DNA of 64,000 bases. Origin: Candidatus Heimdallarchaeum endolithica. GTDB taxonomy: Archaea > Asgardarchaeota > Heimdallarchaeia > Heimdallarchaeales > Heimdallarchaeaceae. Positions 17,078 to 24,937 of the stretch are shown here, piece by piece. The stretch's first letter is position 1. The number at the start of each line of letters is the position of its first letter. The position numbers were made by a program, and so were the translations under genes. The notes beneath the pieces are model-generated. The model searched no databases. It saw only the letters and a program-made list of their open reading frames with translations, and was not told the DNA's origin. Where the stretch lies: positions 2,944,001 through 3,008,000 of the forward strand of contig CP084167.1 in NCBI GenBank assembly GCA_021513715.1, in the 5' to 3' direction.

Positions 17078-17917
17078 TTAGAATAAGTGCTTTAATTGTT
17101 CAATTTTTTCTGGAGAATAATTATTCCTTTTCATTATTTCTACAGCTTTATCATAATATTCTTGTGCTTTTTTCTTCTTCTCTAATTTTAAATATATCTT
17201 AGCTATTTGCATAACTATTGTTACCAAAAAATCATCTTGTTTTTTGTGTTCAAAATAAGACATAGCTGATAAGAAATAGCTCAGTGCATCTTTTTCATCT
17301 TCTGTCGAGAGAGAAAGTAATGCTAGATCTATTTCTGCTAACGCTTTTTTCTCTTCAGCTTTTGCTCTCTTAAATAAGTGTATTGCTTTCTGGTAAGCTA
17401 ATTTAGCGTTTTGGACAGAATCAGGGTTTTTAACATCTTTTAGAAGAGTGTTTCCTATCTCTTTCCAAGAATCACCTAAATGTTCTATTTTTCCTATATT
17501 TTCAAAAAGTTCCTTTGAAATATCTAAAAACTTTTTACTTTTTTCAATATTTTTACATTCTCTATGAAGAGAACCCATTTTTAATGCGCATTCAGCAGCT
17601 TTTTCAACATCTTGAATTTCAGTAAATTTAATGAAAGCCTCATTGAGCGACTTTAATGCATACTTTTTCTGATTCAAATTTAAATATGCATGACCCAAAA
17701 TAAACATACTTTCTGCAGCTAATTCTTTTGAATTTAAAGTAGAAAAAAGACTTTCAGCAAACTGTAGGTCTCTTACACATTTTTCGTAATTTCCTCTTTC
17801 AAAATTGATTTTACCTTGATTAAAATACATGTTAGCTTGAGCTTTATGTGGATTAGCTGCTTCAACCATATGTGTACTATTTGATAATCCTTTTTTTAAA
17901 TTCATGGATAGTACCAA
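17078..17917 (-). CDS. TPR-repeat protein; paralog of 10150-10926 (true start may be a downstream ATG)
   Basis: TPR-like helical repeats. Confidence 0.75.
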   Translation of the reverse strand: MVLSMNLKKGLSNSTHMVEAANPHKAQANMYFNQGKINFERGNYEKCVRDLQFAESLFSTLNSKELAAESMFILGHAYLNLNQKKYALKSLNEAFIKFTEIQDVEKAAECALKMGSLHRECKNIEKSKKFLDISKELFENIGKIEHLGDSWKEIGNTLLKDVKNPDSVQNAKLAYQKAIHLFKRAKAEEKKALAEIDLALLSLSTEDEKDALSYFLSAMSYFEHKKQDDFLVTIVMQIAKIYLKLEKKKKAQEYYDKAVEIMKRNNYSPEKIEQLKHLF

Positions 17918-18263
17918 CTAGAAAACTAAAAAGAATTTTTGATAGTATAGTTTTTTTTTGAGAAAGAATTAATTAAATTCAGTTAAAAAAGAAAAAAATA
18001 AAAATTTTAAACTGGATTATTCTTGTTTAATTTTTTAAAAGTTTATATTTTATTATTTTGCATTCTAAACACTTATTTTCCAAAAAGATCTTCATGTTCT
18101 AATTATTTCTAGAAATTTATGAAAGAAAAGAAAAAAGAAAAAAGTTAAGAGTGGAAATGGATAACTTTTGCAAGCTAAAGAAAAAGAAATAATTAAATTA
18201 GAAAAGCTTTATAAAGGCTATAAAGAAATCGACATGAATTTAAAAAAAAGGTGTTTAAAACCA

Positions 18264-18839
18264 ATGACAAAATTAGACTTTGGTATAGTAATACAAAATG
18301 TAGTAGCAAGTATAAACCTGTACTGCACTATTGATTTAGTGAATGCTTATCAGATGCTTATTGATGACGATCAACTTTTTGTTTCTTATAATCCTGAAAC
18401 TTTTCCTGGTTTGATTCTAAAAATTAAAAAACCAAAAATTTCTTCTCTAGTTTTTTCTAGCGGCAAACTTGTTTTAACTGGCGCTAAATCCACTGATATG
18501 GTAAACAAAGGAGTTCAACAGATGATTAAAATACTAAGAACTGTAGGTACTGAAATTACTGAAGAGCCTGAAATTATTGTTCAAAACATTGTTGCTAGCG
18601 GACATTTTAACAACCGTTCTATTAACTTAGAACTTGCTTCTTTATGGTTAGATCATTCAATGTATGAGCCTGAACAATTTCCTGGTTTGATTTATCGTTT
18701 AGCTGAACCAAAAACAGTCTTACTTCTTTTCCAGAGTGGTAATCTTGTTTGTACAGGGGCTAAAACTGAAGAACAAGTACGACAAGCTGTTGAAAACACT
18801 TATAACCACTTAGATGAAATTAATGCCTTTGAGTTTTAG
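18264..18839 (+). CDS. tbp: TATA-box binding protein
   Basis: Two repeats: QNVVAS...YNPETFPGL...FSSGKLVLTGAKS and QNIVAS...YEPEQFPGL...FQSGNLVCTGAKT; likely ATG at 18264. Confidence 0.97.
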   Translation: MTKLDFGIVIQNVVASINLYCTIDLVNAYQMLIDDDQLFVSYNPETFPGLILKIKKPKISSLVFSSGKLVLTGAKSTDMVNKGVQQMIKILRTVGTEITEEPEIIVQNIVASGHFNNRSINLELASLWLDHSMYEPEQFPGLIYRLAEPKTVLLLFQSGNLVCTGAKTEEQVRQAVENTYNHLDEINAFEF

Positions 18840-18920
18840 TTCTATTTTTTACTTCCTTTTTTTAATTAGCTTCTAAGCAACAAAAACCTTTATCGCTAAA
18901 TCTACAATTTCTTTTTTTCT

Positions 18921-20507
18921 CTATTTTTCTGTAATTGTTAGATAATTCTTCTGTACGTTTTCACTCACTAATACAATTTCTACTTTTTTGAATTTTTGTG
19001 GAGACTTTATCAGCTCATATATTAGTAAAATATCAAATTCTTCAAAGTGTTTCTGACTTAATACTGAATTAGGTAGAATATGCCCAATTATCTGATATCC
19101 ATCAAAAATTCTCTTTTTTTTGTTTAAGGATTTCTCATTTACTGTTGATCCTGATAATAAAAGAGAACACATTTCGTCTTTATACGTAACTACGTTTACT
19201 AATACAATTTCAATATTTTCAATTATTTCATCATTTTTCTTTTCATGTGTTATTGATCTAATAGCGGGAGTAATTTTGATAATATCTTTTAGATTTTCAA
19301 TAATCTTCTTCTTAATGTCAGTTCTTTTAAAGCCAAATATTGCGTCAGAGTCAGTAATTGCAGATCTATATTTGTAAAATCCTGGTTTTCCAAGTAATGT
19401 GTCAGAGTCTGTTTTAATCTTTAAATTTTTTAGTTTAACAATGTCACTTGAAGATGAAGCGAGATCATAAACCATAGAGATATTTACAGCATTAGCTAAC
19501 AAATAAGCATAATTTTTTCTTATTCGCTGTTGTTCATCATCTGTTAACTTTTTAGTGTTCTTCAAAGCTTCTGGAAAAATAGATAGAGCTTTAGAATACC
19601 CTTTATAATCACTTAATCCATTTGCGATAGCTGCATAAAGAATAGCTTTTTTAGTTGTTTTATGCTTTTTTACAAAATCTAAGAGTAAGGGGAGAATTCG
19701 CTCTACTTGTTCATCAGAAATCTTACTCATCATTGTAAGAATAGATAGTCTTTTTGCTATTTCATTGGGATTATTAACTTCAGAGAGTGTACGTAGGACT
19801 AGATTAACTCCATCTACAACCATCGATTTATACTTTGGAGCAACGATTAATCCTTGATTTTCACTGAAGAGGTGAAGAAAAAAGTCTGAAGCCATATGTA
19901 GTTTTGAGGAAGGATAAGAATTATTATCAACCAATTCTATTACTCTCTTACAAGAATCTGCAGCTTCATTGATTTTTTTGCTAAACATATGCATTAAGCC
20001 AATATTAACTTCTGTATATACCAAATTCTCGATAATATTGTTCTTTTCTGCGATTTGCTTTGACTTAATGAGATACTCAAGAGCTTTATCTTTTTCTAAA
20101 GTTCTATAAATAGTGAACAAAAGATTTAGCGCTTTAATTATCAATTCAGGATCGTTTATTTTGAATGCCATGTTTTTTGCTTTTTCTGCAGCTTTCTTTG
20201 CGCCTTCATATTCATTGTTTAAAATAAAAGAATTAGCTAGGTTAAGGTAAAATTTAATGTAGTTTTCTTTTGAAGATAGAGGAATCAATGGTTTGATTCT
20301 CTTGAGAAGAATCAGTGCTTGTGGACGTCTTTCTTGTAATAGTAATTCATAAGTTTCAGATAAAAGAAAATCAACAAAACTGTTGACGTCCATCTCTTTT
20401 TTTATTTCAAGGCTTGTTAAGAATTGTTTTCTCTTTTTGTCATCTACTACTATTTCTTTTAGTTCATCAACACTTAAAGAACCAACTTGCTTAATTATAT
20501 CGCCCAT
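18921..20507 (-). CDS. Helical-repeat (TPR-like) hypothetical protein
   Basis: 528 aa with TPR-like N-terminal half; directly downstream of hisS. Confidence 0.6.
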   Translation of the reverse strand: MGDIIKQVGSLSVDELKEIVVDDKKRKQFLTSLEIKKEMDVNSFVDFLLSETYELLLQERRPQALILLKRIKPLIPLSSKENYIKFYLNLANSFILNNEYEGAKKAAEKAKNMAFKINDPELIIKALNLLFTIYRTLEKDKALEYLIKSKQIAEKNNIIENLVYTEVNIGLMHMFSKKINEAADSCKRVIELVDNNSYPSSKLHMASDFFLHLFSENQGLIVAPKYKSMVVDGVNLVLRTLSEVNNPNEIAKRLSILTMMSKISDEQVERILPLLLDFVKKHKTTKKAILYAAIANGLSDYKGYSKALSIFPEALKNTKKLTDDEQQRIRKNYAYLLANAVNISMVYDLASSSSDIVKLKNLKIKTDSDTLLGKPGFYKYRSAITDSDAIFGFKRTDIKKKIIENLKDIIKITPAIRSITHEKKNDEIIENIEIVLVNVVTYKDEMCSLLLSGSTVNEKSLNKKKRIFDGYQIIGHILPNSVLSQKHFEEFDILLIYELIKSPQKFKKVEIVLVSENVQKNYLTITEK

Positions 20508-20523
20508 ATTTTACCCCTACTAT

Positions 20524-22026
20524 TTATTTAGTGTTCATTATTTTTCGTAGTTCGTTCTCAATCCCTTCAACTGAAAGCAATGTTTGTTCTCCTGTTTCCA
20601 AGTTTCGTATTGTTACTTTATTTTGTTCCAGTTCTCTTTTTCCTACTATTATCATGTATTTAATTTTTCTAGTTGCAGCGTCTTCTAACTGATTAGTTAG
20701 TTTCCACCCAAAAGGATTAAACAAAATCTTAAACTCTTTTCTTAATCTTGTAGCTATATCTGTTGCTTCTTTTATAACTTTCTTATTTACAGGAGCAACA
20801 TAAAAATCTACTTTCTGAAAATATGGGGGTAATCTTCCTAAATCCTCTAAAATAGCCATTAATACAGTTTCTCCCATGCCTATTCCTGTTGCAGGTATCT
20901 TTTCTCCACCAAAACTTGAAACTAGTTGATCATATCTTCCTCCACCAGCTATAGCTCTTACTACTGAACCTGTACGATCAAAGAATTCGTAGACAATTCC
21001 TGTATAATAATCTAAACCTCGAGCTATTGAAGCATTGTATTCACAATTATTAATAACTCCAAAATAGTCTAAATAAGTAGCTAATTCTCTCAATTTATCA
21101 AGGGCTAAAGTAGCTTTTTCTCCTAAATCCAATTTTGATATTTTTTCAAGAAAAAGAGAGGGTTCTCCTTTAATTTTGGAAAAAAAGTATACTTTCTCTG
21201 CTTTATCCTTATCTAAACCTATTTTTATGAGAGTATCAATGATTTTTTGTTTTTCTATTTCAGGAACAAGTTCATAATAATAATCTATATACTCCTTATC
21301 TTTATTAGATAAGTTAGGGAATTCTTTTTCTTGTTTCTGTTTTTTTAATCTAACAAAAGTAGCTATTTCTTTAGCTTTAGAAACAGTAATCCTCTTTTCT
21401 AAAAGGTCTTCAACAATAAAATCTTGGATATATTTTTCTTTTGAATCTAAAACTTTGATTACATCAAGGTAATTTTCGATTCCCAAGTATTCAATATAAT
21501 TTTGAACTAACTCTCTACTGTTTATTACACAAATAAATTCTCCATCTTTTAATCCACTAGTTTTAATAATATTACATGTTAGTGCAATAATTTCTGCATC
21601 AGCTGCAGGATGATTAACACCAATGATATCTGCATTAAATTGAAAAAATTCTCTTACTCTTCCTTTTTGAGGAGTTTCATTCCTAAAAATTCTAGGTATT
21701 GAAAACCATCGAATAGGTTTAGGATAACGTTGTTGCTCATTTACAATCATTCTGGCTAAAGTAGGTGTTTGCTCTGGACGAAGAACGAGTTTTCTATCAT
21801 CTTTACCTTTAACAATAAAGGTTTCTTCCAGAATCTCCTCACCCGATTTAATTTCAATTAATTTTGCATACTCTAACGAAGGACCTTCATACTCCTCATA
21901 ACCAAAGCTCTCTGAGACATTTCTCATGATTCCTAAAATGTAATTTACCTTAGAAAAATCTGAAGGATAGTAATCTCGAAAACCTTTAATCCCTTTTAGT
22001 ATCTCCTTAAGTACTCCGTCATCCAT
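20524..22026 (-). CDS. hisS: Histidyl-tRNA synthetase with enlarged insertion domain
   Basis: KGFRDY, LRPEQT, FRNETPQKGRVREFFQ, RGLDYYTG, GGGRYD, anticodon-binding C-terminus. Confidence 0.96.
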   Translation of the reverse strand: MDDGVLKEILKGIKGFRDYYPSDFSKVNYILGIMRNVSESFGYEEYEGPSLEYAKLIEIKSGEEILEETFIVKGKDDRKLVLRPEQTPTLARMIVNEQQRYPKPIRWFSIPRIFRNETPQKGRVREFFQFNADIIGVNHPAADAEIIALTCNIIKTSGLKDGEFICVINSRELVQNYIEYLGIENYLDVIKVLDSKEKYIQDFIVEDLLEKRITVSKAKEIATFVRLKKQKQEKEFPNLSNKDKEYIDYYYELVPEIEKQKIIDTLIKIGLDKDKAEKVYFFSKIKGEPSLFLEKISKLDLGEKATLALDKLRELATYLDYFGVINNCEYNASIARGLDYYTGIVYEFFDRTGSVVRAIAGGGRYDQLVSSFGGEKIPATGIGMGETVLMAILEDLGRLPPYFQKVDFYVAPVNKKVIKEATDIATRLRKEFKILFNPFGWKLTNQLEDAATRKIKYMIIVGKRELEQNKVTIRNLETGEQTLLSVEGIENELRKIMNTK

Positions 22027-22139
22027 TTAATTTCAAAGACAATTTCCAGAGGAGTTTAAATAATTTAGCTTCTGTAAGATATTCCTTGATGATTTTCAAT
22101 AAAAAGGAGATTGAAAGAACAGATGTTGATTAAAGTGGT

Positions 22140-23114
22140 CTATTCATCTTGAAAATCTCTTATTAGGGAAATTTCAAAGAGAGGAGTGGATTTTACTGAC
22201 CAGAAGACTTGCTTATCAATTATATTGTTTAAAAGATATCTTGAAATTTCAGTTTCAGTTAAACTTCTTTCTGTTTTATTGATGCCCTGTAGATCTTTAA
22301 CAAATTCTAACAAGAGTTTTGTTAATAGATTTGTAGATCTTATTTGTTCCATTCTGGTAGTGACAAGCCAACATGAAACAGAATCATCAGCAGCCATTAT
22401 AAACTGGCGATCTCTATATTTCAAAATCTCAATTATTGGAAATTGACTGGAAGAAAATTTACATTGGATAACAGGTGATAAAACATCAGAATTTAAATGA
22501 GATTGGGGAGTAGTTAGTCTCATCTCATAAACTCCATTACTAGTTTTTATGTACGAAATAAACATTTCCACTGTGATTTTGTCTACTATTAACTGCTGAA
22601 TAATACTTGAAGCTAACCAATTAACTGTTTGATCAAAATTTTTTCCAGAACTAAATGAGGTACTTAAATAATTAATGTTTCTTTTTCTTATTCCATTAGA
22701 AAATCTCTTTATTATAGACTTAACTTCAGAACTAGAAAATTTTTCATCTCTCATGTTGAATAAAACTAAAACGGGATTCTCCTCCTTTAGCCAATTTAAA
22801 GAACGAGATAACCATTTTTTTGATTCAGTTAATTGTTCTCTTTTGGTAATATCAGTAACATAAATAAGAGCGTCAGAGCGAGAAATAAAACTTTTCCACA
22901 GAGTTTTCCTAAAAGAAGGGAGACCTCCTAAATCAGTAATACCTAATATTATTCCGTCAGCATTGTACAACTCGTGGTTTACTCCCATAGTAGAAAAAAC
23001 TTGGGAGGGGGAATAACCTAATAGACGATTGATGAAGTAAGTTTTGCCAGAATCTTCTAGTCCAGCAACTGTAACAGAAATATCACGTTTTAAATAAGAA
23101 TAATCAGGTGACAC
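22140..23114 (-). CDS. Arf/Arl-like small GTPase with C-terminal extension
   Basis: G1 GLEDSGKT, G2 STMG, G3 DLGG(L), LW...SDALIYVTD, degenerate G4 NMRD. Confidence 0.8.
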   Translation of the reverse strand: MSPDYSYLKRDISVTVAGLEDSGKTYFINRLLGYSPSQVFSTMGVNHELYNADGIILGITDLGGLPSFRKTLWKSFISRSDALIYVTDITKREQLTESKKWLSRSLNWLKEENPVLVLFNMRDEKFSSSEVKSIIKRFSNGIRKRNINYLSTSFSSGKNFDQTVNWLASSIIQQLIVDKITVEMFISYIKTSNGVYEMRLTTPQSHLNSDVLSPVIQCKFSSSQFPIIEILKYRDRQFIMAADDSVSCWLVTTRMEQIRSTNLLTKLLLEFVKDLQGINKTERSLTETEISRYLLNNIIDKQVFWSVKSTPLFEISLIRDFQDE

Positions 23115-23626
23115 ATCTAATCCCCATCTATTTGAACCCCGAAACGATCTTCAAGTAAATGGATAAGATAAATCGAATATTAAGAAGACAATCTTCTTGT
23201 TTAATATTCAAATTTATTTTATTTGTTTATTTATTTATTTTACATGAAGATTTTATTAAGCTAATAATAGCAATAGAGATATATAATAATATCGTTTCTA
23301 CTTGGAATAAGATAAATAAAAAAAAAGAATTCTGAAGTGAAAGTTGTGAAATTAAAAATAAAAAATCACAAAAAAAGGACTGTTTTATACAAAAAAGAAA
23401 AAAAGAGTATAAGAACATTAGGATAAACTTTAAGGAATGTTACTTAAAAAGAGTAGATGAGACACATGAAATAATTTTTTACGTAAATTTTGAGACAATG
23501 GTATGTTAGATAGACAGAAGGAATGAAAAGAATTCAATGAAAAAGAAAGCACAGACTCAAAACAATAAACATGACACAATTTTTTTGTAGCCGTTATATA
23601 TTCAATTCTCATTTATTATTTGTCTT

Positions 23627-23802
23627 GAGCTATATGCTTTAAGACGTAGGTTTCATTCTTACGACACCCGGGCTTCCCATTGGGAACTATGAGTGCCGGG
23701 ATCAGGAGATGAACCCTTTAGAGAACCATAGTAGACTGTGTCTCTTGTTCTCTTAAACCAGTCTTAACAAATAGTGTTTTATCTGGTTGGGTAGAGTCCT
23801 GA
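23627..23802 (+). ncRNA. Unassigned structured RNA candidate
   Basis: GC-enriched island with nested helices (see findings); G-U pairs favour the + strand. Confidence 0.5.
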
Positions 23803-23929
23803 AGAAATTAAGTAAAATCTCAACTCATAAATAGAAAGTAATGCTTATAAATGCGTCTGGTTTTCGTTGTTATAGTTAGTATAAGGAAATTATTGTTCAA
23901 AGTGAACAAAAGGAAAAAGGTGAAATTAT

Positions 23930-24937
23930 TTGAGTTTAAAGGGATATATACTCAGACGAACAATCTACATAGTTCCAATTATGCTTGCAATCACACTAAT
24001 GAACTTTACACTGATTAACGTCAGTCCTGGAGATCCTGTTTTAGTAAGATTAGGATTGATTAAATGTGAAACACCGGAGTGCTATAACGCGGCGTACAAC
24101 AAAGAAGCAATAGAAATGGGACTGCTAGATAATAATTTATACACTGTTCCTTGGTTTGAAAGATATATAGATTTCGTAAATGATCTATTGCATTTCGACC
24201 TAGGAAAAAGCTGGTCTTATACCCAAGCAGGAGAAGGAATACCAATATCAAAAATAATTGGAGACCATGCAGTATATACGGTGGTACTAAACTTACTATC
24301 GTTTGTTTTATCACTGCTATTGTCGACAGCAATAGGGGTAGTATCAGCAACAAGACAAAATAGCTTCTGGGATAGAACATTAACAGTAGCAATGCTATTA
24401 GGATATTCTATGCCATTGTTCTGGCTAGCAAAATTGTTAATGCTAGTATCTTATTATTTATTTAACTTCACAGGAGTAGCAAATAAGTCAGCATTTAATA
24501 AACCGCTAATACTGAACCCGATGTTCTATAAATTTCTAATATTGCCAACACTGTCACTCACACTGGGAGGACTGGTGTTCATGGCAAGGCTAATAAGATC
24601 TCAACTGTTGGAAATATTAAGACAAGATTATATTACAACAGCAAAATCTAAAGGACTTGATAGAAGGGCAGTAATATACAAACATGCGTTCAGAAACGGG
24701 TTACTACCAATAGTAACAATTATAGGAAATTCACTACCAGGATTACTATCAGGGTCAGTAATGGTAGAGTCAGTGTTCGGATGGCCAGGACTAGGAACAA
24801 TATTCCTAGAAGCAGCATTCATGAGAGATTATCCGATGATGATGGCAACTAATACTATATTCCCATTCCTGTTCCTAATAGCAAGATTGCTGACAGATAT
24901 AACTTACGTCTTTATAGACCCGAGAATAAAATATTAA
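23930..24937 (+). CDS. dppB: Peptide/nickel ABC transporter permease (DppB/OppB)
   Basis: YILRR, PGDP, FDLGKS, DYITTAKSKGL, HAFRN, ESVFGWPGLG, RDYP, DPRI. Confidence 0.93.
   Translation: MSLKGYILRRTIYIVPIMLAITLMNFTLINVSPGDPVLVRLGLIKCETPECYNAAYNKEAIEMGLLDNNLYTVPWFERYIDFVNDLLHFDLGKSWSYTQAGEGIPISKIIGDHAVYTVVLNLLSFVLSLLLSTAIGVVSATRQNSFWDRTLTVAMLLGYSMPLFWLAKLLMLVSYYLFNFTGVANKSAFNKPLILNPMFYKFLILPTLSLTLGGLVFMARLIRSQLLEILRQDYITTAKSKGLDRRAVIYKHAFRNGLLPIVTIIGNSLPGLLSGSVMVESVFGWPGLGTIFLEAAFMRDYPMMMATNTIFPFLFLIARLLTDITYVFIDPRIKY

Follow-up and report, generated by a model that had tools for sequence, protein, structure and literature searches.

The structured RNA encoded upstream of a dppB-type ABC permease gene in Candidatus Heimdallarchaeum endolithica lies on a mobile element, which we take to be, very probably, a stand-alone omega RNA element. 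TnpB is a nuclease ancestral to Cas12. By sequence comparison, the RNA is shown to be a homologue of the RNA that follows clade-A tnpB genes; solo tnpB genes carry it at their 3′ end, one of them 15 kb away. There is good reason to regard the element as a TnpB transposon derivative without genes, which has kept both ends, the promoter and the whole omega RNA scaffold, and we lean towards the view that its omega RNA is currently loaded by a resident TnpB. The window, that is, the whole stretch of DNA analysed, comprises 64,000 nt of contig CP084167.1 (positions 2,944,001 to 3,008,000), and coordinates refer to it unless the host genome is named. The element and its surroundings are laid out as follows.

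23465..23828, plus strand: whole non-autonomous element, 364 bp, with CAT at both boundaries
23466..23486, plus strand: left end, an imperfect inverted repeat of the right end, ATGA-N-TTTTACGTAA
23487..23570, plus strand: poorly conserved spacer
23575..23600, plus strand: predicted archaeal promoter, with a conserved CACAA box and the TATA box TTATATA (23594-23600)
23622..23828, plus strand: omega/reRNA scaffold, about 207 nt, forming the 3′ part of the element
23808..23828, plus strand: right end (inverted repeat), which is also the scaffold 3′ end
23829..23848, plus strand: host flank read as the putative guide, of an inferred length of about 16-20 nt, differing in sequence in every copy
23930..24937, plus strand: dppB-type ABC permease (PF00528), a bystander

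A search of the 3.33-Mb host contig returned 18 full copies, which are 364-382 bp long and have sharply defined boundaries in common, together with several fragments, and the chromosome of H. aukensis (3,081,793 bp), the sister genome, has about eight copies of the gene-less element. Copies are as similar as 99.7% identity, and many interrupt ORFs, in either orientation. One gene-less copy interrupts an IS605 tnpA whose frame is restored with a single CAT remaining, and a related tnpB element interrupts galT, which again reads through once a single CAT remains. In H. aukensis, the orthologous site is empty, and from the point of insertion onward its dppB promoter is almost the same in sequence. 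Multiple copies with sharp ends, an empty orthologous site and ORFs restored by a single CAT thus show that the element is mobile and inserts at V-C-AT sites to give AT (CAT) at each junction; the left boundary consists of a host C plus the AT core, and the right boundary reads ...CTCAT. The RNA therefore sits on a mobile element, a finding (a MITE or IS end) that the earlier note had itself set against its reading of a novel RNA.

The element has no ORF, and its ends, which it has in common with tnpB elements in the same genome, are imperfect inverted repeats of each other over 21-26 bp with palindromes inside; viral contigs gave no match to it. Comparing the copy at 23465-23828 with the others, identity is 93% at the right end (23803-23828), with conservation halting directly past CTCAT, 87% over the RNA, 69% over the promoter and 40% over the spacer, although recent shared ancestry may account for part of the conservation of the RNA, and the spacer value may count stretches that have been replaced. 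A 92-nt 3′ fragment that starts at an internal CATG is found at several sites, fragments that start at an internal CATG or stop at the internal TATG occur, and in two independent metagenome assemblies a copy is apparently inverted at its own internal TATG. These fragments and the apparent inversion look like products of crossover at the AT core.

Within the RNA, we distinguish six helices, one long-range pairing and one unusual junction, all on the plus strand.

23622-45, plus strand: helix P1
23646-62, plus strand: helix P2
23667-700, plus strand: helix P3
23703-07/23797-801, plus strand: helix P4
23720-53, plus strand: helix P5
23756-88, plus strand: helix P6
23689..23694, plus strand: pseudoknot strand ATGAGT in the P3 bulge, partner of the terminal ACTCAT (23823-23828)
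23703..23801, plus strand: P4 with the K-turn-like internal loop GATGA (23708-12)/AGAG (23793-96), closing a two-arm junction

The helices that had been proposed from the sequence, along with both TATA-like motifs (23594 and 23844), were confirmed at their positions, as was the GC-enriched island (41-48% GC, vs 14-30% in the flanks). The RNA has no meaningful Rfam match, none at gathering score, and no tRNA is found by ARAGORN. An extent of about 175 nt had been suggested; the structure stands but the limits do not, since the RNA runs from 23622 to 23828 and includes the extra helix P1. Its 5′ boundary is placed at 23622 because gene-less versions elsewhere, in related genera, join the tnpB promoter directly to P1. 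Across 20 copies, 96% of cells in P1-P6 are paired, with slight covariation within this young family. Folding of 23620-23810 gives -59.6 kcal/mol (z -2.8; 1 of 200 shuffles is equally stable), and the minus strand gives z -4.0, so that folding, on which the earlier assignment to the plus strand had drawn, leaves the strand undecided; it is the promoter and the homology to tnpB 3′ ends that place the RNA on the plus strand. Two of the smaller helices fared less well. The inner CATAG/CTGTG helix is present here but peculiar to this one copy, the conserved inner hairpin being AGAC/GTCT, and ACCC/GGGT lies where it was described but includes an A-U pair that is not kept.

Two features had escaped the first reading, namely the element ends and the long-range pairing of ATGAGT with ACTCAT. 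The latter is predicted by RNAalifold, and a complement of 6-9 bp stands at the homologous position in most relatives; family A has ATGATT/AATCAT, with one compensatory change, and family B has one mismatch. In TnpB omega RNAs generally, the 3′ end of the scaffold is reported to take part in a pseudoknot (10.1101/2023.11.20.567912). P4 covaries fully across subfamilies (CAGGA/TCCTG, GAGGA/TCCTC, CAAGA/TCTTG, TCGTG/TGCGA, TCCTA/TAGGA), while the loop inside its stems is nearly invariant ([G/T]ATGA / [G/T]AG), and the K-turn-like junction is kept in five subfamilies. A kink-turn has tandem G-A/A-G pairs beside a 3-nt bulge, set between two stems, and binds L7Ae. The resemblance to one that had been noticed here is supported by the near-invariant GATGA/[A]GAG loop, the tandem GA/AG and the conservation and covariation of both flanking stems, but the opposite strand carries one extra G, and the likeness falls short of proof; in family B, a U replaces one G of the motif. 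Titles and abstracts returned by our literature searches held no report of an omega RNA using a K-turn or L7Ae. The cross-subfamily MAFFT alignment misaligned P1-P3 and did not enter pair counts, and helices were compared by anchoring. The RNAalifold consensus, which cannot hold a pseudoknot, chose it over the outer stems of P3 and P4; the structure of the covariance model R1 used below is therefore imperfect and its E-values are rough.

The link to TnpB comes from the company that the ends and the RNA keep. Ends of the same type bound some 14 solo-tnpB elements that belong to families A and B, and they also bound elements of the unrelated families C and D; one intact family A element lies in the window.

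38542..40411, minus strand: intact family A solo-tnpB element with the same end type, the candidate in-trans partner
38806..40248, minus strand: family A TnpB, 480 aa (PF07282; PDB and Foldseek matches to Cas12f/TnpB)
38543..38738, minus strand: model-matched part of the cis omega RNA of the family A element (R1, 25 bits, E 1e-6)

This TnpB has the RuvC residues D241, the alternative E399 and D433, a C4 zinc finger and an E-to-G change at RuvC-II (G346); D241, E399 and D433 are invariant in 16 homologues. The rearranged RuvC-II weighs against the reading of a working partner nuclease. Intact ORFs number about eight for family A and two for family B across the genome (about 10 of clade A/B). 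Weak DNA matches in other genera fall about 80 nt past homologues of the family A TnpB. At these loci the homology clearly extends over the whole RNA, which either follows tnpB or occurs in gene-less versions of 355 bp. R1, built from gene-less copies, finds the cis RNAs in other genera at 35-47 bits (E 1e-13 to 3e-7) and leaves families C and D, whose TnpB is unrelated, unmatched. A sequence HMM reaches cis RNAs at E down to 1e-9, with the resident family A cis RNA undetected (E above 1). By sequence, the RNA thus resembles cis RNAs from other genera more than it does that of the resident family A, and its true parent TnpB may therefore be missing from the host genome. Some related loci are worth recording in their own right. 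In a related genus, the same TnpB clade often occupies a single site, following TGTCAT at the 3′ end of an ATPase-like gene, and has before tnpB a long conserved, hairpin-rich 5′ region of about 400 bp. At 2006471 in the host genome, an unpaired left end that includes the family A promoter box lies upstream of a 457-aa non-TnpB ORF.

The target motif offers a second line of argument. In gene-less copies and clade A/G elements alike, the right end reads TCAT, and as it finishes in CAT, any distinction of self from non-self must be made further upstream. At position -4 of the target, where the background frequency of T is 37%, T occurs in 1 of 26 gene-less copies (two of which are one site) and in none of 18 clade A/G tnpB elements. 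In family C, whose own right end is TGAT/CGAT, all nine targets have it. The contrast between VCAT and TCAT is significant, yet is only a proxy for the TAM. It fits TAMs of VCAT for gene-less copies and clade A/G and of TCAT for family C, with TAM-based self-avoidance and in-trans use, and suggests that gene-less copies have been under TnpB-dependent retention; the -4 bias could also come from transposase preference rather than from TnpB. Family C has the same end type with a different RNA, and TCAT was the target at every left end inspected; in H. aukensis, one family C copy is inserted within a gene-less copy.

By analogy with the model of Meers et al. (PMC10055086), in which the guide is taken from the flank, empty alleles are cut and repair restores the element, we infer the following cycle. 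The TATA box, which lies 28 nt upstream of the RNA start in 17 of the 18 copies (the 18th was mis-picked by the script), would drive a transcript from about 23622 across the right end and into host DNA. A clade A/B TnpB made elsewhere would bind the scaffold and use the first 16-20 host bases as guide. An empty site, whether the element has been excised or a sister chromosome is without it, would read VCAT plus the guide match and be cut, and repair off the filled allele would bring the element back, while the filled site, which reads TCAT plus the guide match, would be spared; the mover would be supplied in trans. A stand-alone noncoding RNA, one of the two earlier proposals, is in this sense upheld, for the RNA is structured, has its own TATA box and is probably transcribed independently; it is not a new cellular class, being instead, very probably, a TnpB guide scaffold borne on a transposon.

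An inert MITE, its RNA left over from a lost tnpB parent and its copies spread by the DNA ends alone, would account for the nearest cis relatives of the RNA lying in other genera rather than in the host genome, for a right end that mobility requires in any case and for the recurrent 92-nt fragment. It sits poorly, however, with a decayed spacer beside a retained promoter distance, a full set of helices, the pseudoknot and a preserved K-turn-like loop, and with a target bias that agrees with the predicted TAM of the clade, and we consider it unlikely.

Across three genomes, two of them complete and one 95% complete, no element bearing these ends contains a transposase, and paired ends enclose a solo tnpB or the RNA and nothing else. 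The search for a mover found no match to IS630 DDE_3, a single tyrosine integrase with no such ends near it, and no solo Cas1 in the host genome, whose three Cas1 loci all lie within CRISPR-Cas operons. The high-copy DDE-type IS families and the IS607s of relatives have different ends, and no annotated transposase adjoins three Thorarchaeal-type homologue loci. The sole Y1 tnpA is part of an element with other ends; at 925509-925884 of the host genome, a copy of our element disrupts it at the second codon. A serine TnpA with a MerR-HTH is absent from the host genome, where resolvase-domain genes are present without the N-terminal HTH. Two paralogous resolvase-domain proteins of 240-249 aa with a short C-terminal domain are encoded at 316728-317450 and 405348-406097 of the host genome. 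Both genes lie on the chromosome and are kept throughout Heimdallarchaeaceae (the first at about 75% identity), neither is enclosed by such ends, and as movers they are a lead only. Inverted-repeat ends around a 2-bp core, together with recombination products at internal YATG, suggest a serine-recombinase-like crossover, and we put a serine recombinase as the mover at roughly even chances. A broader and doubtful proposal is that these elements form a group of Heimdallarchaeaceae transposons, with inverted repeats as ends and AT as the crossover core, that lacks its own transposase and is moved by a host enzyme (the two syntenic resolvase-domain genes being the candidates). On this view, the group would have taken up at least three unrelated families of TnpB whose TAMs are complementary, and its K-turn scaffold would recruit host L7Ae.

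The other earlier proposal, a cis-regulatory leader of dppBC, is largely refuted, as is a riboswitch or domesticated regulator in the same position. The element does point the same way as dppB, 15 bp separate it from the TATA box downstream, transcription could read through, and the guide region overlaps the dppB promoter and its TATA box (23844-51). Yet 23829-23848 is identical at the empty H. aukensis site, and the absence of the element there beside a near-identical dppB promoter rules out a leader; furthermore, the other 17 copies lie at unrelated sites without linkage to transporters, and the filled site lacks the predicted TAM, all of which makes this reading very improbable. Near-matches to guides elsewhere in the host genome number at most 0-2 per guide, with none for the copy at 23465-23828, and there is thus no sign of trans regulation. 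A bacterial promoter/terminator scan was uninformative, the host being archaeal. Upstream in the window (17078-23114) are genes for a TPR protein, TBP, HisRS and an Arf-like small GTPase (PF00025, 324 aa, with a C-terminal extension), a set as expected for an Asgard genome. Equally improbable is a bridge or seek RNA of an IS110/IS1111-type element steering its own insertion, which would match a structured RNA of about 180-200 nt, subterminal inverted repeats and a 2-bp core, but for targets that have only VCAT(G) in common rather than a programmed 11-14 bp specificity, an RNA that is 3′ of tnpB with no DEDD recombinase alongside, and ends that are absent from the multicopy IS families inspected. 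Neither an IS110 transposase within these ends nor RNA loops matching the two target flanks came to light.

The analysis removes a false candidate for a new ncRNA or riboswitch and gains an RNA family absent from Rfam. It also yields a testable Asgard TnpB system, for which a TAM is predicted (VCAT, or TCAT in family C), the limits of the scaffold are defined and minimal variants occur naturally. For transposon specialists, the points of interest are the mover of recently active elements in two complete genomes without an autonomous copy and, further, whether a K-turn and L7Ae serve an omega RNA.

Stand-alone omega RNAs of OMEGA systems have been described (PMC10691335), as have PATE-like protein-less IS200/IS605 derivatives that encode omega RNAs (Meers et al., PMC10055086). 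Our element resembles both in being gene-less and multicopy, with ends common to solo-tnpB elements, a scaffold at the right end, a flank that would serve as guide, and TnpB and transposase presumed to act in trans. Unlike PATEs, whose hairpin ends are read by Y1 TnpA, it has ends that form an imperfect inverted repeat centred on an AT core, and its scaffold has a K-turn-like junction; the evidence leans against a strict PATE with asymmetric subterminal hairpins moved by Y1 TnpA. With TnpB elements of the IS607 family (CboIStron, 10.1101/2023.11.20.567912; mechanism, PMC6188088), on the other hand, it has in common a dinucleotide core at both junctions, a scarless empty site, a pseudoknot at the scaffold 3′ end and last bases of the right end that also occur in the target motif. 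It differs in its core (AT rather than GG), in having inverted-repeat ends and, from CboIStron-type elements, in having no intron; membership of IS607 was rejected on the AT core, the inverted repeats and the lack of a MerR-HTH serine TnpA. Membership of the IS110/IS1111 bridge RNA systems was rejected for want of programmed target specificity and of a linked DEDD recombinase at the loci inspected. As for the TnpB itself, RuvC-II-rearranged (RIIr) TnpBs and Asgard aCas1-linked TnpBs are described in PMC10691335. Family A is like the former in its E-to-G change at RuvC-II and conserved downstream glutamate, a likeness judged on these motifs. Two Thorarchaeal-type homologues (about 35% identity) carry GTTCACTCA or GTTCGCTCA at the gene end, a motif reported for aCas1-linked loci; unlike those loci, the host genome has no solo Cas1. 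Stand-alone omega RNAs and omega-bearing PATEs are thus already published, and the present element stands apart in how its ends are built, in the lack of a recognised transposase, in its K-turn-like junction and in target motifs that complement each other.
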